A stretch of 27,793 nt of DNA, from contig JBDTVL010000001.1 in NCBI GenBank assembly GCA_040007215.1, forward strand, positions 1 to 27,793, given 5' to 3'. Source of the stretch: Flavitalea sp. GTDB taxonomy: Bacteria; Bacteroidota; Bacteroidia; Chitinophagales; Chitinophagaceae. The position numbers and the translations under genes are program-made. Under the pieces are notes generated by a model. The model saw nothing but the letters and a program-made list of their open reading frames with translations, was not told where the DNA came from and did not search any database. Positions 7,360 through 16,927 of this stretch are shown one piece after another (the first letter of the stretch is position 1; every line of letters begins with the position of its first letter).

Positions 7360-9804
7360 ATGCAGGTTTTAAAGTTTGGCGGCACTTCTGTCGCCAATGC
7401 AGAGAATATCAATAAAGTAATCAGTATAGTAAAAAAGGCGGCGGAAAAGGACAGAACAATTCTGGTGGTTTCAGCATTTGGCGGCGTTACAGATAAACTG
7501 ATCGCCAGCGCCACGCTTGCCGCCGATGGCGACGAATCGTACAAGGAACATCTTTCCATTATAGAAAACAGGCATCTGACGGCTGTTCAGCAGCTCATCC
7601 CGGTATCGCGCCAGAGCAGCGTACTGAGCGCTGTAAAGAAGCAATGCAATGAAATAGAAGATATCTGCAATGGCATCTTCCTGTTGCGCGAACTGTCGCC
7701 CCGCACTAAAGACAGGGTGGTAAGTTTTGGCGAATTGTTATCCTCCCGCATTATATCGGCAAAATTTGTTGCCGATGGCATTGAGAATGAATGGAAGGAT
7801 TCGCGTGAGCTGATCCGGACCGATGGTCATTTCGGGAATGCAAAAGTTGATTTTGACATCAGCAATCGCCAGATCAGCGATTTTTTTAACGGCTCCTCCC
7901 AGAACCTTTTTGTGCTTCCGGGTTTTATCTCTTCCGGTCCCGGTAATGCAATCACAACGCTGGGACGCGGCGGTTCTGATTATACGGCAGCGATTGTAGC
8001 GGCGGCGCTGGAAGCCGGTTCGCTGGAAATATGGACCGATGTATCGGGTATCATGACAGCCGACCCCAGCCATGTTATAAATGCAAGAGTAATTCCGCAT
8101 ATTTCTTACCAGGAAGCTATGGAGCTTTCTCATTTTGGCGCCAAAGTGATCTACCCGCCCACTATACAGCCCGTACTGAAAAAGAATATCCCTGTCTGGG
8201 TGAAAAATACTTTCGCGCCTTCCGATGAAGGCACGCTAATAGATAATACCGTATCAAGAAACGGAAATATCATCCGCGGTATTTCCAGTATTAATAAAAT
8301 TGCGCTTCTCGGCCTGGAAGGCGGCGGCATGGTAGGTATTCCCGGCTTCTCCAAGCGATTGTTTGAAGCGCTTGCCAATGATAAGATCAATGTGATCATG
8401 ATCACCCAGGGTTCTTCCGAGCATTCTATCTGCGTTGGCGTTGATGAAGCTGAAGCGGAAAGAGCCAGGGAATCTGTCGATAAGGCTTTCAGCCAGGAAA
8501 TAACGGCCGGCCAGGTAGATCCGCTGATTGTGGAAACGCGTCTTTCCGTAGTGGCTCTGGTGGGCGATAATATGAAAAATCATCCGGGTATCAGCGGTAA
8601 GATGTTTGGCGCGCTGGGCAGGAATGGCATTAATGTAAGGGCTATTGCCCAGGGTTCTTCCGAAAGAAATATCTCTGCGGTCATTTACCAGTCGGACGTT
8701 AAAAAGGCCGTGAATGTATTACACGAAGAGTTTTTTGAAACAACCTTTAAGCAGGTCAATCTATTCATTACGGGAGTAGGTAATGTGGGTAGCCGCCTGA
8801 TCGGACAGTTGCTGCAGCAGAAAAAATACCTGGAAGATCAACTGCGCTTACAGGTAAGGGTGGTAGGGATGGCCAACAGCAAGAAAATGCTGTTCAACGA
8901 TGATGGTATTAATCTGCTGACCTGGAAAGAGGACCTCGAAAAGGGCAGCGCTATGAACCTGCAGGAATTCCTGAAGATCGTTCCCTCGCGCAACCTCCGC
9001 AATTCTCTTTTTGCAGATGTTACCGCCAATGCAGAAGTGGCTGCTTCCTACGATAAATTGTTGTCGAAAAGCGTATCTATTGTGGCCTGCAATAAAGTAG
9101 CCTGCTCTTCATCCTATCAATATTACAAGAGTCTTAAAGAACTGTCGAGAGAGTATAATGTGTCTTTTTTGTTTGAAACAAATGTGGGCGCAGGGCTACC
9201 GGTTATAGGTACCCTGAACGATCTTTTACGCAGCGGCGACAAGGTGAATAAGATCCAGGCCGTATTAAGCGGAACGCTGAACTTTGTATTCAACAATTAC
9301 GACGGTAAAACAAGTTTTGCAGAAGTGGTGAGGCAGGCGCAGGAAGAAGGCTATACCGAACCTGATCCAAGGCTCGACCTCAGCGGAACAGATGTAATGC
9401 GCAAGATCATGATCCTGGCCCGGGAAGCCGGCGAACAGATCGAGATGGCTGATATTTCCAATGAAACCTTCATGCCTGCATCGTGCATGACCGGCGATGT
9501 GGAGAATTTTTATAAGGAAATGGCTAAAGAAGAAGCGCATTTTAAAAAGTTGTATAAAAAAGCGGCAGATGCTGGAACAAAGCTGAAATTCGTGGCCATT
9601 TATGAAAATGGTAAAGCGGCGGTAGGTTTGCAGCAGATCGATCCGCAACACGATTTTTATCATCTCTATGGCAAGGATAACGTAGTGTTGTTTTACACCG
9701 ACAGGTATAATGATCAGCCCCTTGTAATAAAAGGAGCGGGAGCAGGAGCGGAAGTAACGGCATCCGGCGTATTTGCCGATATTATCAGGGCCTCACGTTT
9801 ATAG
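7360..9804 (+). CDS. thrA: Bifunctional aspartate kinase / homoserine dehydrogenase I
   Basis: N-terminal KFGGTS, LGRGGSDYTAA, WTDVSGIMTADP, two ACT regions, then GVGNVG, FETNVGAGLP, GYTEPDPRLDLSG and GAGAGAEVTASGV. Confidence 0.96.
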   Translation: MQVLKFGGTSVANAENINKVISIVKKAAEKDRTILVVSAFGGVTDKLIASATLAADGDESYKEHLSIIENRHLTAVQQLIPVSRQSSVLSAVKKQCNEIEDICNGIFLLRELSPRTKDRVVSFGELLSSRIISAKFVADGIENEWKDSRELIRTDGHFGNAKVDFDISNRQISDFFNGSSQNLFVLPGFISSGPGNAITTLGRGGSDYTAAIVAAALEAGSLEIWTDVSGIMTADPSHVINARVIPHISYQEAMELSHFGAKVIYPPTIQPVLKKNIPVWVKNTFAPSDEGTLIDNTVSRNGNIIRGISSINKIALLGLEGGGMVGIPGFSKRLFEALANDKINVIMITQGSSEHSICVGVDEAEAERARESVDKAFSQEITAGQVDPLIVETRLSVVALVGDNMKNHPGISGKMFGALGRNGINVRAIAQGSSERNISAVIYQSDVKKAVNVLHEEFFETTFKQVNLFITGVGNVGSRLIGQLLQQKKYLEDQLRLQVRVVGMANSKKMLFNDDGINLLTWKEDLEKGSAMNLQEFLKIVPSRNLRNSLFADVTANAEVAASYDKLLSKSVSIVACNKVACSSSYQYYKSLKELSREYNVSFLFETNVGAGLPVIGTLNDLLRSGDKVNKIQAVLSGTLNFVFNNYDGKTSFAEVVRQAQEEGYTEPDPRLDLSGTDVMRKIMILAREAGEQIEMADISNETFMPASCMTGDVENFYKEMAKEEAHFKKLYKKAADAGTKLKFVAIYENGKAAVGLQQIDPQHDFYHLYGKDNVVLFYTDRYNDQPLVIKGAGAGAEVTASGVFADIIRASRL

Positions 9805-9889
9805 ATAAACGAATATCGCGTTCCTGGCTGAACGAAGAAAATAAAAAGAAAAAGGACCGGTATAATGGCGGGTTATAAAAAATAAATGG

Positions 9890-10825
9890 ATGAAAACAGT
9901 AAGCATTTTAGCCCCGGCATCAGTAGCTAATCTCGTATGCGGTTTTGATGTGCTGGGTATGGCGCTTGCCGATCCGGCAGATGAAATGACGATAAGTTTG
10001 ACTAAAGAGCCTGGTATTATTATCCATCACGAAGACCAATACGGACTGCCGGTTGCCCCGGAAAAGAATGTGGCCGGAGTAGCGCTGATGGCCCTGGTAA
10101 AGGAAATGAAAGAGGAGGTTGGTTTTGTGTTAACTGTGAATAAGCTGATCAAACCTGGCAGCGGCCTGGGTTCCAGCGCTGCCAGTTCGGCCGGCGCCGT
10201 TGCTGGGGCTAATGCATTGATCGATAATTATTTTTCCAAAGAAGACCTGGTGCGTTTTGCGATGGTCGGTGAAAAGCTGGCCTCGGGCGTTAAACATGCC
10301 GATAATATAGCTCCCTGTCTCTATGGAGGAGTAACTCTTGTTCGGTCTATATTACCGCTTGATATTATAAAATTATCTTTCCCCCCATTATATGTAACAG
10401 TGGTGCATCCGCAGATAGAAGTGAAAACCTCCGATGCGCGGCAGATCCTGCGCAACCAGGTGGCTTTGAAAGATGCCATCAGACAATGGGGTAATATTGC
10501 CGGATTGGTAGCGGGGTTCCTGCAAAAAGATTATGAACTGATCGGTCGTTCTCTCGAAGATGTGATCATAGAGCCGGTAAGAAGCATACTGATACCCGGT
10601 TTTAAAGAATTGAAATCGGGATGTATTGAAGCCGGCGCGCTGGGGGGCGGTATTTCCGGATCAGGACCTTCTGTATTCATGCTTAGTATTGAAGAGCGCA
10701 CAGCCCGCAATGTGGAAACAGTGATGAAAGACATTTACAGCCGACTGGGTATTGAATTCAAAACTTACGTAACAAAAATCTGCGATAAAGGAGTCAGGGT
10801 ACATGAAATATTACAGCACCAATAA
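9890..10825 (+). CDS. thrB: Homoserine kinase
   Basis: PASVANLVCGFD, GHMP-kinase loop PGSGLGSSAAS, HADNIAP and ISGSGPS. Confidence 0.95.
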   Translation: MKTVSILAPASVANLVCGFDVLGMALADPADEMTISLTKEPGIIIHHEDQYGLPVAPEKNVAGVALMALVKEMKEEVGFVLTVNKLIKPGSGLGSSAASSAGAVAGANALIDNYFSKEDLVRFAMVGEKLASGVKHADNIAPCLYGGVTLVRSILPLDIIKLSFPPLYVTVVHPQIEVKTSDARQILRNQVALKDAIRQWGNIAGLVAGFLQKDYELIGRSLEDVIIEPVRSILIPGFKELKSGCIEAGALGGGISGSGPSVFMLSIEERTARNVETVMKDIYSRLGIEFKTYVTKICDKGVRVHEILQHQ

Positions 10826-12122
10826 ACAATCGCCGGTAGTCGATTTTAAAGAAGCCACGATAAGAGGACAAGCCCCTGATAAGGGTTTATATTTTCCTGA
10901 GCGCATCCCTAAACTACCGCCTTCTTTTTTTACCAATATCAATACGCTTGCCAGACACGAGATAGCGATGCAGGTGATCGCACCTTATGTGGGTGACACT
11001 ATTCCTGAAAATGAATTGCAGCGTATCGTTGCTGAAACAGTCAATTTTGATTTCCCCCTGGTAAATGTGGAAGGGAATATCTTTTCTCTGGAACTTTTTC
11101 ATGGTCCCACGCTTGCTTTCAAAGATGTTGGCGCAAGATTTATGAGCCGTTGCCTGGGTTATTTTTCAAAGGAAAGGACTGATCGTATAATAGTGCTGGT
11201 AGCCACTTCCGGCGATACCGGCGGCGCCGTCGCCAACGGATTCTATGGCGTTGAAGGCATTGATGTTGTGATTTTATACCCTTCAGGGAAGGTTAGCTCC
11301 GTTCAGGAAAAACAACTCACTACCCTGGGAAGAAATATTCATGCGCTGGAAGTTGACGGATCATTTGATGATTGTCAGAAAATGGTGAAGGAGGCTTTTA
11401 CCGACTCCGATCTCAATGCCCGTTTATTTCTTACTTCAGCCAATTCCATTAATGTGGCGCGATGGCTCCCACAACAGTTTTATTATTTCTTTGCCTGGCA
11501 ACAACTAATGCGCGACCAGGGAAACCAGCAGCAGATCAAGCCGGTTATTTCAGTGCCCAGCGGTAATTTTGGCAATATTTGCGCAGGCCTTGTAGCTTAT
11601 CGTTCAGGCCTGCCCGTTGATCATTTTATTGCCGCCTGTAATGCCAATGATGTGGTTCCTGAATATTTTCTCCATGGTAACTACCAGCCCCAGCCGGCAA
11701 AATCAACAATATCCAATGCTATGGATGTTGGCGACCCCAGTAATTTTATCAGGATGCTGGAACTATTCGATCATAAGTATGGCGACCTCCGCGCCCTGAT
11801 CAGCAGCTACAGTATTACCGACGATGAAACCAGGCAAACTATCAGGAACGTATATACCCAGTTTAATTACCTGCCCGATCCTCATGGAGCGGTGGCCTAT
11901 GCCGCCCTTAAGAAATATCTTGTTGAAAATCCTTCGCAGGCAGGGAAAAGTATTTTCCTGGAAACTGCACATCCTATTAAGTTCTATGATGTAGTAGAGC
12001 CGGTGATCAACCAAACAGCGCCTATGCCATCATCGATCAAAGAGATCATGCATAAGGAAAAGAAGAGCCTTAAAATAAATAAGAAATTTGAGGAACTGAA
12101 GGAATACCTGTTGAGTAAGTAG
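10803..12122 (+). CDS. thrC: Threonine synthase
   Basis: ELFHGPTLAFKD (PLP lysine), ATSGDTG, SANSIN, VPSGNFGN, DPHGAV and ETAHP. Overlaps the thrB end by 23 nt. Confidence 0.96.
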   Translation: MKYYSTNKQSPVVDFKEATIRGQAPDKGLYFPERIPKLPPSFFTNINTLARHEIAMQVIAPYVGDTIPENELQRIVAETVNFDFPLVNVEGNIFSLELFHGPTLAFKDVGARFMSRCLGYFSKERTDRIIVLVATSGDTGGAVANGFYGVEGIDVVILYPSGKVSSVQEKQLTTLGRNIHALEVDGSFDDCQKMVKEAFTDSDLNARLFLTSANSINVARWLPQQFYYFFAWQQLMRDQGNQQQIKPVISVPSGNFGNICAGLVAYRSGLPVDHFIAACNANDVVPEYFLHGNYQPQPAKSTISNAMDVGDPSNFIRMLELFDHKYGDLRALISSYSITDDETRQTIRNVYTQFNYLPDPHGAVAYAALKKYLVENPSQAGKSIFLETAHPIKFYDVVEPVINQTAPMPSSIKEIMHKEKKSLKINKKFEELKEYLLSK

Positions 12123-12221: not shown

Positions 12222-13478
12222 CTAGATGATGCCGGCCAGTTCAAGACTTTTTTTCTTCAGCTTTCTGAGTTCGACATCTTCTATAACAGGCTCGGGCATT
12301 AGTATAAGGGAAACGTTATTTTCTCTCCACCATGTTTTATTAAGCAGCTCCCTAAAGTGCAGGACGCCTACCAGGTATTTCCTGTCTTCCATGGCATGCC
12401 ATTCCTCGATCCATTCAAAACGTTCTTTTGGAATATATTTAAGATCGTCAAAACTCAGGTAGGCTTTTACATAAAAATCATGCGTAAGCTCATGCGGTTT
12501 GTGGTGGTAAAGTTTTTTATACTCATAGCGGTACTGGTAACGTAAAGCAGAGATATCGCTGAGCACTGCGGAGGCGGTAGGAAAACTTCCGGCGCCTTTT
12601 CCATAGAAGAATTGTTTATCGGAAAAACCGCTTTCTATCACTACTCCGTTATATTCATTTCTAACAAACGCCAGAGGATCATCCTGCTTTACAAATTGCG
12701 GCAATACGAAAGCCGCTACTTTTCCATTTAGCAGTTTCTGCGCCTGCGCAACTAATTTGATCTGATAGTTTTTTTCCTTGGCAACTAATGCATCGCCCGA
12801 TTGTATATTCTGAATACCTGTAAATACGATGTTGCCCGGGTTGTCGAGAATGCCATAAGCATGGGTAAGCAGAAATGTCCATTTGTTGACTGCGTCAAAA
12901 CCTTCTACATCCAGTTTGGGGTTGCTTTCTGCGAAGCCTAATTGCTGCGCCAGTATAAGCGCCTGTTTGAAGTCGAGCTTTTCTTCAAACATCTTGGTGA
13001 GGATGAAATTCGTAGAGCCATTAACGATAGCTTTCATGGAATGAAGAAGATCGTTATCGTAATATTCTTCCAGGTTGCGGATAACCGGTATGGAAGCGCA
13101 GGCTGCGGCTTCATATAAAAAAGGTTCTCCGGTGGTTTGCTGCAGCTCCAGTAATTCGGATAAATGTTCCGCGATCATCTTTTTATTGGCGCTCACGACC
13201 GATTTGCCATTCCTTAATGCGGTTGACACAATATGGAATGCGGCTTCAGAATCGTCAATCACTTCTACGATAACATTGATGTCCTCATCCATCAGCAGAT
13301 CATCTTTTTCGGTAGTGAATAAGGCGTCTGGCGCATTTCTCTGCTTCCCCGGATTTTTGATGCATATCTTTTTTATAGTAGCATTCAGGGATGCGGTTTG
13401 GTGCAGTACCTTATATAATCCTTCGCCTACAACACCGAATCCGAATAAACCAATGGTCAATTGTTTGTGCGTATCCAT
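12222..13478 (-). CDS. hom: Monofunctional homoserine dehydrogenase of the met operon
   Basis: GLFGFGVVG, VSANKK, YEAAACASIP, NGSTNFIL, AQQLGFAESNP and GKGAGSFPTASAV. Confidence 0.92.
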   Translation of the reverse strand: MDTHKQLTIGLFGFGVVGEGLYKVLHQTASLNATIKKICIKNPGKQRNAPDALFTTEKDDLLMDEDINVIVEVIDDSEAAFHIVSTALRNGKSVVSANKKMIAEHLSELLELQQTTGEPFLYEAAACASIPVIRNLEEYYDNDLLHSMKAIVNGSTNFILTKMFEEKLDFKQALILAQQLGFAESNPKLDVEGFDAVNKWTFLLTHAYGILDNPGNIVFTGIQNIQSGDALVAKEKNYQIKLVAQAQKLLNGKVAAFVLPQFVKQDDPLAFVRNEYNGVVIESGFSDKQFFYGKGAGSFPTASAVLSDISALRYQYRYEYKKLYHHKPHELTHDFYVKAYLSFDDLKYIPKERFEWIEEWHAMEDRKYLVGVLHFRELLNKTWWRENNVSLILMPEPVIEDVELRKLKKKSLELAGII

Positions 13479-13480
13479 AA

Positions 13481-14530
13481 TTAATGTGCGGTTTCTCTTT
13501 TTTTTGCGTTAAAGGAATCCCTTTCTATAAAATTAAGGATATGATGACTGATCTGTTCAAATTCCAGTAAAAATCCATCATGTCCATAAGGAGAGTTGAT
13601 CGGCTTAAAGGCAGCCCCAGGTATATTCTCCGCTATAAACTGCTGTTCGTGAGCAGGAAAAAGCAGGTCGGTTGTTATGCCTATGGCTAGTGTTTTCGCC
13701 TTGATGGATCCAAGTGCGTTGATCACTCCGTTTCTTCCTCTGCCCACATTATGGGCATCCATCGATTTACTTAGCGCATAATAACTGAAAGCATTAAATC
13801 GCCTGGCCAGTTTTTCACCTTGGTAACGCTGATAAGATTCACTGTTAAAATTTTCTAATTTATGATCATCCGTTTCGGATTGCCCCGACTGGTAGGTTTC
13901 ATAACTCCGGTAAGAGATCAGCGCAATGCTCCGGGCCACTTTCATTCCCTCAATGCCTGCGCTTTCCTTATTTTCTTTCCAGCCCGGATCGGCTTCAATA
14001 CATAATCGTTGAGAAGCATTAAAGGCTCTTCCCCATGGCGAATGAAGTGCATTGGTAGCGATCGGAAAAATATAACTGAACAGATCAGGCTCTGTGATGG
14101 CCCATTCCAGCAATTGTTGTCCGCCCATAGAACCTCCTATGCCTATATGAATTTTTCTTATGCCCATCAGTTCTTTCAAAGGATGATAAGCGCGGATCAT
14201 ATCGCGGGTGGTAAAGAACGGGAAGCTATGGTAATAGGGCTGATCGGTTTTCGGATTGATTTCCAAAGGACCAATACTTCCATAACAGCTCCCGGGCATG
14301 TTAACGCAAATAATAAACCAGGCAGAAGGATCAAATAATTTCCCTTCACCCACGAGGCCGGGCCACCATTCTGCGGCATCGCTGTTGGCGGTGAGCGCAT
14401 GAAAGATCCATACTGTATTGTCGCCTTTTTCATTCAGGCGGCCATAGGTAGTGTAGCCAATATGATACCCTGGCAAAATATGGCCGGATTCGAGCGTGAA
14501 GGGATGATGGTGTTCAAAAATCTTTGGCAT
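13481..14530 (-). CDS. metX: Homoserine O-acyltransferase, alpha/beta-hydrolase MetX family (acetyl versus succinyl donor not determined)
   Basis: HALTAN, GSCYGSIGP, nucleophile motif GGSMGG, TDLLFP and GHDGFL. Confidence 0.93.
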   Translation of the reverse strand: MPKIFEHHHPFTLESGHILPGYHIGYTTYGRLNEKGDNTVWIFHALTANSDAAEWWPGLVGEGKLFDPSAWFIICVNMPGSCYGSIGPLEINPKTDQPYYHSFPFFTTRDMIRAYHPLKELMGIRKIHIGIGGSMGGQQLLEWAITEPDLFSYIFPIATNALHSPWGRAFNASQRLCIEADPGWKENKESAGIEGMKVARSIALISYRSYETYQSGQSETDDHKLENFNSESYQRYQGEKLARRFNAFSYYALSKSMDAHNVGRGRNGVINALGSIKAKTLAIGITTDLLFPAHEQQFIAENIPGAAFKPINSPYGHDGFLLEFEQISHHILNFIERDSFNAKKRETAH

Positions 14531-14531
14531 A

Positions 14532-15872
<1,341 letters not shown>

Positions 15873-15945
15873 TTAATTATTTGAAGAAAAATAAAGTTTG
15901 AAGTCAATACGTATTGTACGGTAATGCCGTTGTCTGAGGAGAATG

Positions 15946-16041
15946 TTAAAGTATGCCTTTCGGCATACAACAAATACAGCACAACGCCTGGCCGAATGCG
16001 GCAGGCGTTATAGCTTTAATATTTGTTGTTCTGGCGTTCAT
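15946..16041 (-). CDS. Putative Cys/Met-rich leader peptide of the met operon (31 aa, MNARTTNIKAITPAAFGQALCCICCMPKGIL)
   Basis: Translated by hand on the minus strand. Codons TGC TGT ATT TGT TGT ATG lie near the C-terminus. The ORF sits 11 nt downstream of a perfect TACATTTG element and its stop is about 90 nt upstream of metY. Confidence 0.75.
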   Translation of the reverse strand: MNARTTNIKAITPAAFGQALCCICCMPKGIL

Positions 16042-16052
16042 TTTTATGCATG

Positions 16053-16060
16053 CAAATGTA
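16053..16060 (-). promoter_or_regulatory. Bacteroidota -7 promoter element TACATTTG for the met leader/operon
   Basis: Exact TAnnTTTG match, oriented toward the leader ORF. Confidence 0.65.
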
Positions 16061-16135
16061 GTGGACTTTATAACTATTTTCATAAAATACTTTAATGTTA
16101 GCTGAATTTTACCAAATCACTGACCCTTAATATTT

Positions 16136-16570
16136 TTACATCCTGACTTCCCATTCATCTTCAATAAGTTGCCAGTCATTGAAGGCCTCTTTCCCGCCTC
16201 TGGCCTTCCAGTCAGAATCAATGGTCAGCTTTGAACTGATACCTCCACGGGGGTTGCAGATCATGACAAGTCTTAATCTTTCGGGCGCGTAAATCGCAGC
16301 GATATCATCATAAATAATATTGATAAGCCTCTCATACGACACTACGATATTCCTGAGCTGGAAAATGTACTGCTTTAATGATTTCAGCTCTATGATTTTG
16401 TCTTTGGGATAAAATACCAGGTAAATAACTGCAAAATCAGGTTGCTCCTTCACGCCCAGGAAGGTGAATTCAGGAATCTTTGTTTTGATTTCATACGCCT
16501 GCTGCGTAGGATTTGGAATGGCTTTTAAAATATTCCTGTCTATATTCTTATAGGTAAGTGTCTCTTTCAT
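16136..16570 (-). CDS. QueF-family (T-fold) protein lacking the catalytic cysteine; function unknown
   Basis: PEFTFLGVKEQPDFA aligns with QueF PEFTSLCPKTGQPDFA, but Gly replaces the Cys. It also has the QueF motif IELKSLKQY, SYE (versus FHE) and NPRGGIS. Confidence 0.85.
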   Translation of the reverse strand: MKETLTYKNIDRNILKAIPNPTQQAYEIKTKIPEFTFLGVKEQPDFAVIYLVFYPKDKIIELKSLKQYIFQLRNIVVSYERLINIIYDDIAAIYAPERLRLVMICNPRGGISSKLTIDSDWKARGGKEAFNDWQLIEDEWEVRM

Positions 16571-16704
16571 GATTTGAAATTTATCGGCATTTGTTTAAAG
16601 CGGTGAAACGATGAATAAATAATTTGACTGTTAACAACCTTTCAAGAAAAAATTATCGGAAGAATCTGTTCTATTGTATGCGCGGTAGCTTTCCGGCTAA
16701 CAAC

Positions 16705-16736
16705 AAAAAAGCTCTTCTGATAGTCAGAAGAGCTTT
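16705..16736 (-). terminator. Intrinsic terminator of the SAM-I riboswitch expression platform
   Basis: Minus strand reads AAAGCTCTTCTGA-CTA-TCAGAAGAGCTTTTTT: a perfect 13-bp stem with a 3-nt loop, and a U6 run whose first three U's close the stem. Confidence 0.9.
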
Positions 16737-16790
16737 ACTATTTTGACGGATGCAGAATGCAAACGTTTGGAGTATAAGGCTTTGATCTGA

Positions 16791-16902
16791 CTTATCTATC
16801 CCAATTAATCCATTGGGATGGAGTTGGCACCTTATTCTGAATGAACAGAACAGGTTGTCAAGGCTTCGCAGGGCCATTTCCCTCAGCCTTTCTTGATAAG
16901 AG
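16791..16902 (-). ncRNA. SAM-I (S-box) riboswitch aptamer
   Basis: Minus strand reads CTCTTATCAAGAAAGGCTGAGGGAAATGGCCCTGCGAAGCCTTGACAACC...AAGGTGCCAACTCC ATCCCAAT-GGATTA-ATTGGGAT AGATAAG. This gives P1 CTTATC/GATAAG, a P2 kink-turn element GAGGG..GGCCC..GAAGCC, P3 ACAACC/GGTGC and a P4 hairpin. Confidence 0.93.
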
Positions 16903-16919
16903 ATGTTTAAGAACTGATG

Positions 16920-16927
16920 CAAATATA
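16920..16927 (-). promoter_or_regulatory. -7 promoter element TATATTTG driving the riboswitch transcript
   Basis: Exact TAnnTTTG match about 18 nt upstream of the aptamer. Confidence 0.7.

Follow-up and report, generated by a model that had tools for sequence, protein, structure and literature searches.

In a 27,793-nucleotide stretch of DNA from Flavitalea sp., a soil bacterium (Chitinophagaceae; contig JBDTVL010000001.1 of GenBank assembly GCA_040007215.1; the whole stretch is referred to below as the window), the first gene behind a SAM-I riboswitch, which responds to S-adenosylmethionine (SAM), is one that public records label preQ(1) synthase. Here we show that this gene, QueFL, encodes a QueF-family protein without the catalytic cysteine that, judged from its sequence, is a member of a large, well-separated Cys-less sister clade of QueF and not a preQ1 synthase. 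Comparison across genomes supports the view that the Cys-less paralog truly belongs to the methionine/SAM regulon and did not land there by chance: it recurs behind SAM-I riboswitches in several operon layouts, stands between the two halves of a split metH in an independent operon and, in two lineages, is found in genomes that lack canonical MetF. We propose, with about even confidence, that QueFL is an NADPH-dependent, flavin-free analogue of methylene-tetrahydrofolate reductase (MTHFR), which in the source genome would act as a SAM-repressed second copy. New here are the riboswitch census and the comparison of MetF between carriers and non-carriers of QueFL; a full-text literature search found no paper tying the QueF family to MTHFR, or QueF to S-box regulons.

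A Cys-less sister clade of QueF

QueFL is a 144-residue T-fold protein encoded on the minus strand at 16136-16570, with PF14489 as its sole Pfam hit (64.5 bits) and with close relatives in the Chitinophagaceae. Its public label arises because it passes the QueF-II model TIGR03139, if barely (89.9 bits against a cut-off of 86.9). Alignment to Bacillus subtilis QueF places Gly39 at the position of Cys55, Tyr at that of His96 and Ser at that of Phe95; the equivalents of Asp62 (Asp45), Glu78 and Glu97 (Glu80) are retained together with the PRGG loop. The roles of these residues in the QueF active site have been described (PMC13740343, PMC5372742), and a 2017 survey of the family counted Cys55 among its defining residues, excluding sequences without it as non-QueF (PMC5372742). 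The QueF/NADPH motif is kept (E61-L-K-S-L-K-Q-Y68; the consensus tested was E(S/L)K(S/A)hK(L/Y)(Y/F/W)), and relative to QueF there is an extra conserved C-terminal motif, DSDW..RGG.

These features hold across a clade. Gly39, Asp45, Lys66, Arg73, Ser78-Tyr79-Glu80 and Arg108-Gly-Gly show no variation among 54 members, and QueFL identity stays at 70-76% across phyla. The 50%-identity representatives near the query include 62 with the Gly and SYER, often with DSDW..RGG, and 44 with a canonical LCP; in the tree, a branch with 99/96 support divides 40 Cys-type from 52 Gly-type sequences. An AF2 model of QueFL (pLDDT 90.8) has unimodular QueF as its closest structure (TM ~0.8; 31% identity for B. 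subtilis QueF), followed by Vibrio cholerae QueF, QueF-L and GTP cyclohydrolase I. Domain fusions gave no useful functional clue, amounting to one Lar fusion, one FliM chimera and otherwise domain-less N-terminal extensions.

QueFL shares its T-fold and length class with unimodular QueF (YkvM type, EC 1.7.1.13; B. subtilis, PDB 4F8B and 4FGC) but differs in lacking the Cys, in falling in a separate clade, in a methionine/folate rather than queuosine context and in its occurrence in hosts without QueC. Among five carrier genomes that are 97-100% complete, QueC (TIGR00364) was above cut-off in none and Tgt in all; with QueC missing, there would be no de novo preQ0 for QueFL to reduce. QueFL is also the sole PF14489 hit in each of five near-complete carrier genomes. 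The Cys-less paralog named in the original prediction, an earlier reading of this DNA, is thus borne out by the Cys55-to-Gly39 replacement, the missing QueC and the split of the tree.

The archaeosine synthase QueF-L has preQ0-tRNA as its substrate and is without the NADPH motif. This crenarchaeal enzyme (PDB 5JYX and 5K0P; TM ~0.6) is likewise a QueF-derived T-fold that has departed from preQ1 synthesis. It keeps the catalytic Cys and forms a thioimide (title of 5JYX), whereas QueFL has Gly at that position and retains the NADPH motif.

A SAM-I attenuator in front of QueFL

The Rfam SAM-I (S-box) model RF00162 matches the minus strand at 16789-16902 over its full length (model positions 1-108 of 108) with a score of 79.9 bits (E = 1.5e-17; gathering threshold, 44.4). 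This places the aptamer within a few bases of the 16791-16902 given in the original prediction, and it is the sole Rfam match across the whole window as well as the sole SAM-I detected in the source assembly, which is 62% complete. Upstream lies a Bacteroidota-type -7 promoter motif, TATATTTG (16920-16927, minus strand; pattern match).

The 221-nt leader folds as a four-helix aptamer and a separate 13-bp hairpin with a U-tract; helices P1-P4 are all recovered in the minimum free energy structure, and the folding energy of -67 kcal/mol corresponds to z = -4.2 against shuffled sequences. A terminator scan and the fold agree on an intrinsic terminator at 16700-16736 (minus strand), with a 13-bp stem at 16708-16736, a 3-nt loop and then the U-tract. 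When the nascent RNA was folded up to the terminator loop, with the 3' arm of the terminator left out, the 3' strand of P1, AAGUCAGA (16786-16796, minus strand), paired with UCUGACU of the terminator 5' arm (16719-16728) and so formed the 5' strand of an antiterminator. The same alternative pairing was recovered in five related leaders, and terminator and antiterminator thus compete by way of the P1 3' strand, as expected of a SAM-I expression platform.

Alignment of six leaders shows conservation of the promoter, TAnnTTTGC, in which positions T-A-n-n-T-T-T-G-C are invariant, of the aptamer core, of GATAAGTCAGA and of the terminator, where one stem pair carries a compensatory change in a single leader (L061). 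The 100-250 nt from the terminator to the start codon are not conserved in the same alignment. A search for TAnnTTTG on the minus strand near the locus returned only 16920-16927 and 16053-16060, with none from the terminator to the ATG at 16570. The promoter, the 13-bp terminator, the classic antiterminator, the lack of a further TAnnTTTG motif before the QueF-like open reading frame and the identity of that frame (PF14489, 16136-16570) as the first gene behind the switch had all been claimed from the sequence, and all were recovered here.

The window RNA is, on these sequence features, an ordinary SAM-I attenuator, for which SAM-dependent termination is predicted. As in the S-box attenuators of methionine operons, a canonical four-helix aptamer is joined to a terminator/antiterminator platform and to met-gene targets. 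Compared with these the RNA has nothing remarkable about it; what sets the locus apart is the identity of the first regulated gene.

Recurrent linkage to SAM-I and methionine genes

The minus-strand order in the window is riboswitch, QueFL, a 281-nt spacer, metY, metX and hom. metY (O-acetylhomoserine sulfhydrylase, 14532-15854) matches TIGR01326 with 678.8 bits. metX (homoserine O-acetyltransferase, 13481-14530) scores 337 bits with TIGR01392 and 304 bits with NF001209, under the curated cut-offs of 500 and 331, respectively, and is therefore assigned at family level only. hom (homoserine dehydrogenase, 12222-13478; NF004976, 307.6 bits) is the final gene of the cluster.

Ten of 150 Chitinophagaceae genomes match the query, eight of them at the level of QueFL (E <= 1e-50). 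Seven matches are close orthologs (at least 80% identity), and every one of the seven has a SAM-I aptamer upstream on the same strand. For a wider census, a covariance model built from ten of the Chitinophagaceae aptamers was run on 80 QueFL genome loci (the QueFL genome scan used a 10-sequence alignment). Same-strand upstream SAM-I was found in 41 of the 80: 36 Chitinophagaceae, one Flavisolibacter and four Cyclobacteriaceae-type Bacteroidota. The 36 come from 39 Chitinophagaceae loci (L023-L061), and the three misses are too short upstream.

At least four operon layouts stand behind the riboswitch in Chitinophagaceae: QueFL, metY, metX, hom (this window, Agriterribacter and Terrimonas); QueFL, hom; metB-like, QueFL, hom; and metB-like, metY, metX, QueFL, hom. 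This variety indicates that QueFL was kept behind the switch through rearrangements. An independent layout, in which the riboswitch precedes metH(N), QueFL and metH(C), occurs at L080, L089, L093 and L099 and again at L193-L196, the loci of further QueFL carriers from the same family, that of the genome G162. The tabulation of homologs, with their recurrent SAM-I and met-gene association, and the lack of a separate TAnnTTTG promoter between switch and reading frame speak for the regulon membership put forward in the original prediction and against chance insertion.

The split metH itself, made of a ~340-residue homocysteine-binding module and a ~890-residue remainder, occurs both with and without an intervening QueFL (L188, L189, L193-L196, L080, L089). 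The split therefore either predates the insertion of QueFL or is independent of it.

Genomic contexts in other phyla and in viruses

Methionine and folate genes adjoin QueFL well beyond the Bacteroidota. MetE ends 8 nt upstream of it in a Bacillota metagenome-assembled genome (L069), a pterin-binding-domain protein lies upstream in one from Neomarinimicrobiota (L082), and in Gammaproteobacteria a full-length metH is its divergent neighbour. The common factor of the contexts with MetH, MetE, ThyX and the pterin-binding protein is reduced folate. In the Syntrophorhabdus-group loci (L062-L086; for example, L066 2079-4435) a conserved block consists, in this order, of a SAM-dependent methyltransferase, a 124-residue membrane protein, ThyX and QueFL; the membrane protein has a Cys-rich C terminus and no family match. 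A conserved small partner protein encoded upstream of QueFL was considered and rejected, the small upstream reading frames being mutually unrelated between lineages.

QueFL is also common on viral contigs, with 180 hits in IMG/VR, and MetK and/or AhcY (S-adenosylhomocysteine hydrolase) stand beside it in ~17 of 80 viral loci examined. Records of cultured phages in INPHARED gave no QueFL match at E <= 1e-10. DUF2452 (PF10504, ~138 residues) follows immediately 3' of QueFL in 15 of the 80 viral loci and in none of 80 bacterial loci (L106-L121 and L151-L157; for example, L109 4399-4815).

Complementarity with MetF

In the family of G162, QueFL is present in 5 of 61 genomes, always as riboswitch-metH(N)-QueFL-metH(C). 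MetF (PF02219) is found in none of these five carriers versus 29 of 30 non-carriers, and four of six non-carrier loci inspected read riboswitch-metH-metF. From this SAM-I-metH-metF arrangement in non-carriers it follows that QueFL occupies the operon that otherwise holds metF. A gammaproteobacterial order gives a second case. Six of its genomes have QueFL, with metH adjacent in all five inspected; none of the six has a canonical MetF, although a divergent hit of 106 bits occurs in one, whereas 27 of 30 non-carriers have MetF with scores of 290-367 bits. Fisher tests give p = 1.8e-5 for the family of G162 and p = 4.3e-5 for the gammaproteobacterial order, values that overstate independence because the genomes are related. 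Among 20 carriers outside Chitinophagaceae, MetF (PF02219) is absent in six, including all three genomes with a split metH, which are complete or nearly so.

Together, a metabolic gap, occupation of metF's operon and a complementary distribution typically mark non-orthologous displacement, and the sound statement of the pattern is two independent replacements. Three displacements were considered and rejected: that of MetF in Chitinophagaceae, where MetF is present in the source genome and in 5/5 carriers; that of dihydrofolate reductase (FolA) in Chitinophagaceae, where FolA is present in 150/150 genomes; and that of FolD, present in 25/26 carriers. In the Chitinophagaceae carriers metF stands alone, with no SAM-I within 8 kb.

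Proposed function of QueFL

MTHFR genes, such as yitJ of B. subtilis, are classic members of the S-box regulon in Firmicutes. Like metF, QueFL sits in a SAM-I-controlled metH operon, metF after metH and QueFL between the metH halves, and we propose for it the pathway role and the reaction of MetF/MTHFR (PF02219). The likeness would be one of function only: MetF is a FAD-dependent TIM barrel of ~300 residues, whereas QueFL is a T-fold of 144 residues without sequence or fold kinship to it and with no evident flavin site, so that direct hydride transfer from NADPH is presumed.

In the model that we suggest, the promoter at 16920-16927 (minus strand) would drive the SAM-I leader. With SAM bound, P1 would hold the strand GAUAAGUCAGA, the 13-bp terminator would form and transcription would stop; with SAM low, GAUAAGUCAGA would pair with the 5' arm of the terminator as the antiterminator and polymerase would enter QueFL, the read-through probably extending into metY-metX-hom. 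QueFL would bind 5,10-methylene-tetrahydrofolate and reduce its N5-iminium carbon by direct hydride transfer from NADPH; the product, 5-methyl-tetrahydrofolate, would supply methionine synthase. The features kept from QueF would serve this purpose: Glu and backbone groups would grip the 2-amino-4-oxo-pyrimidine ring, Asp would donate the proton and the QueF motif would bind NADPH. The anatomy of the riboswitch, the Cys-less clade, its recurrent linkage to SAM-I and met genes and the complementarity with MetF are observed, whereas NADPH and folate binding are inferred from the conserved motifs, and substrate, reaction chemistry and a transcript shared with metY are likewise proposals.

In the second half-reaction of QueF, NADPH reduces a free exocyclic imine on C7 of 7-deazaguanine. 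The iminium carbon of methylene-tetrahydrofolate would be topologically equivalent, being carried on N5, which corresponds to C7 beside the bridgehead next to the 4-oxo group. As the acceptor carbon would stand at the position matching C7, where QueF reduces its imine, the covalent Cys would be unneeded. By this analogy the chemistry of an MTHFR analogue on the QueF scaffold is plausible.

As MetF is also encoded in the source genome, QueFL would there be a second source of methyl-folate, on only when SAM is scarce. More generally, most carriers, the source organism among them, would have in QueFL an additional enzyme, or else something related yet different. For the clade as a whole we suggest tentatively, at slightly under even confidence, that the Cys-less proteins are an unrecognised, flavin-independent class of T-fold 5,10-methylene-tetrahydrofolate reductases, which would have taken the place of MetF in certain Bacteroidota and Gammaproteobacteria, would provide a riboswitch-controlled second source of methyl-folate elsewhere, including in the source organism, and would be carried by phages beside metK and ahcY to sustain the methyl cycle of the host. 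The original prediction had raised a possibly new sulfur or SAM-cycle enzyme: the link to methionine and SAM stands, whereas for sulfur chemistry the evidence points instead to the folate/methyl-donor branch and a MetF-like reductase.

Contrary evidence and alternative readings

Several observations weigh against QueFL as a SAM-controlled MTHFR analogue. A PF02219 gene is kept in 25 of 40 carriers tested. Among these are the five Chitinophagaceae carriers and the source genome itself, so that QueFL has no metabolic gap to fill in the source organism. The carriers of each lineage may form one clade, in which case each complementarity would be one evolutionary event. Some of its neighbours also give no hint of methionine: ThyX stands immediately upstream of QueFL in 15 Syntrophorhabdus/deltaproteobacterial loci, a tRNA methyltransferase adjoins it in Marinilabiliales and argG/argH in some Bacillota, and on viral contigs it lies near sugar-nucleotide genes and DUF2452. 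A genome of the same genus, G108 (99% complete), lacks QueFL and has riboswitch and terminator directly before metY (locus L183, G108:C4; SAM-I 1210-1321, metY 1501-2820, a gap of ~180 nt), which marks the gene as accessory or dispensable. Lastly, given a promoter-like motif before metY, the switch may tightly control QueFL alone.

Some of these points would sit comfortably with a reductase or repair enzyme that is NADPH-dependent and serves methionine synthase and ThyX but acts on another folate or pterin than methylene-tetrahydrofolate, a reading that we regard as unlikely though still in play; dihydrofolate, 5,10-methenyl-tetrahydrofolate and oxidised 5-methyl-dihydrofolate are its candidate substrates, to be viewed with the same reserve. 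It draws on the reduced folate shared by the MetH, MetE, ThyX and pterin-binding-protein contexts, on the 25 of 40 carriers that keep MetF and on the retention of the ring-anchoring pterin/purine residues with the NADPH motif. FolA (PF00186) is moreover absent in 8/8 genomes, two of them Bacillota and the others ThyX-linked carriers, a share that may simply be the background one among ThyX organisms. FolA is, however, present in 150/150 Chitinophagaceae genomes and in all metH-linked carriers tested, as FolD is in 25/26 carriers, and the loss of MetF in two metH-linked lineages would go unexplained.

The loss of the catalytic Cys, the position of QueFL between the halves of a split metH and its dispensability in a sister species would also suit an accessory protein without catalytic activity, a carrier, buffer or regulator that binds folate or purine and aids methionine synthase or the SAM cycle, as would its small size and very high conservation (70-76% identity across phyla). 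We judge this improbable. The E-L-K-S-L-K-x-Y motif, the proton-donating Asp and the PRGG loop vary little or not at all within a diverse clade, which is an enzyme-like pattern, and a binding protein would leave MetF indispensable.

It is very improbable that the riboswitch belongs to metY and that QueFL is a passenger, a mobile and possibly phage-derived QueF-like gene that landed between them and has no role in methionine metabolism. The homologous riboswitch ~180 nt before metY in G108, where QueFL is absent, the patchiness of the family (8 matches at E <= 1e-50 in 150 Chitinophagaceae genomes), its abundance on viral contigs (180 hits) and the promoter-like motif inside the QueFL-metY spacer could each be so explained. 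A passenger would nevertheless hardly keep its SAM-I linkage while the operon was rearranged at least four times, have that linkage in an unrelated metH operon as well, or adjoin metH, metE, metK or ahcY in viruses and further phyla, and QueFL is under strong purifying selection.

That the annotation is right, with QueFL a working preQ1 synthase that relies on a different nucleophile or on a route that needs no Cys, is scarcely credible: the TIGR03139 score (89.9 against 86.9), the preQ(1) synthase label in public records, the one Cys elsewhere in the protein (Cys105) and the possible thioimidate-bypassing routes raised in a 2026 QueF review (PMC13740343), which does not mention Cys-less members, are set against the defining status of Cys55 and the inactivity of C55A or C190A QueF variants (PMC5372742, PMC13740343), the lack of conservation of Cys105 within the Cys-less clade, the absence of QueC from 5/5 carriers and the finding of QueFL beside queC/D/E in none of 160 loci examined.

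The QueFL-metY spacer and neighbouring genes

The promoter-like motif in the spacer, TACATTTG (16053-16060, minus strand; pattern match), lies downstream of the QueFL reading frame and is a possible internal promoter for metY; six related spacers between QueFL and metY have TAAnTTT[G/A] at the aligned position. An alignment of seven such spacers shows a conserved block in the 5' leader of metY (15952-15967, minus strand), where a small hairpin is encoded, UAUGCC-GAAA-GGCAUA. An Rfam search of the spacer (15855-16135) assigned no family, and a second riboswitch or other known RNA there was rejected, the sole hit being a chance-level match of 17.6 bits. The spacer may provide metY with a promoter or leader of its own, or may contain an element for processing or stability. 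QueFL together with the spacer amounts to a ~0.7-kb presence/absence difference within the genus.

uvrA diverges upstream of the riboswitch cluster. Its longest open reading frame, from 16841 (plus strand), would overlap the riboswitch on the opposite strand; since UvrA models match only from residue ~92, the true start is probably at ~17110, with no overlap. On the other side, thrA (bifunctional aspartokinase/homoserine dehydrogenase), thrB and thrC (7360-12122, plus strand) converge on hom-metX-metY. With thrA and hom, the window holds two back-to-back homoserine dehydrogenases, one of the threonine genes and one of the met cluster.

Significance

Thousands of public records carry a preQ(1) synthase label on genes without the catalytic residue, and the annotation is wrong across the clade. 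The QueFL clade, mis-annotated and undescribed, belongs to the methionine regulon and is a probable supplier of methyl-folate. Its linkage to the riboswitch offers an experimental handle, as expression should follow methionine and SAM. If QueFL is indeed an analogue of MetF, it would fill the methyl-folate gap in bacteria that have MetH and no MTHFR gene, and would add a third protein fold for a central one-carbon reaction. It would represent a nitrile reductase turned into an iminium reductase by abandoning covalent catalysis, and would account for an auxiliary gene often met with in environmental phages.

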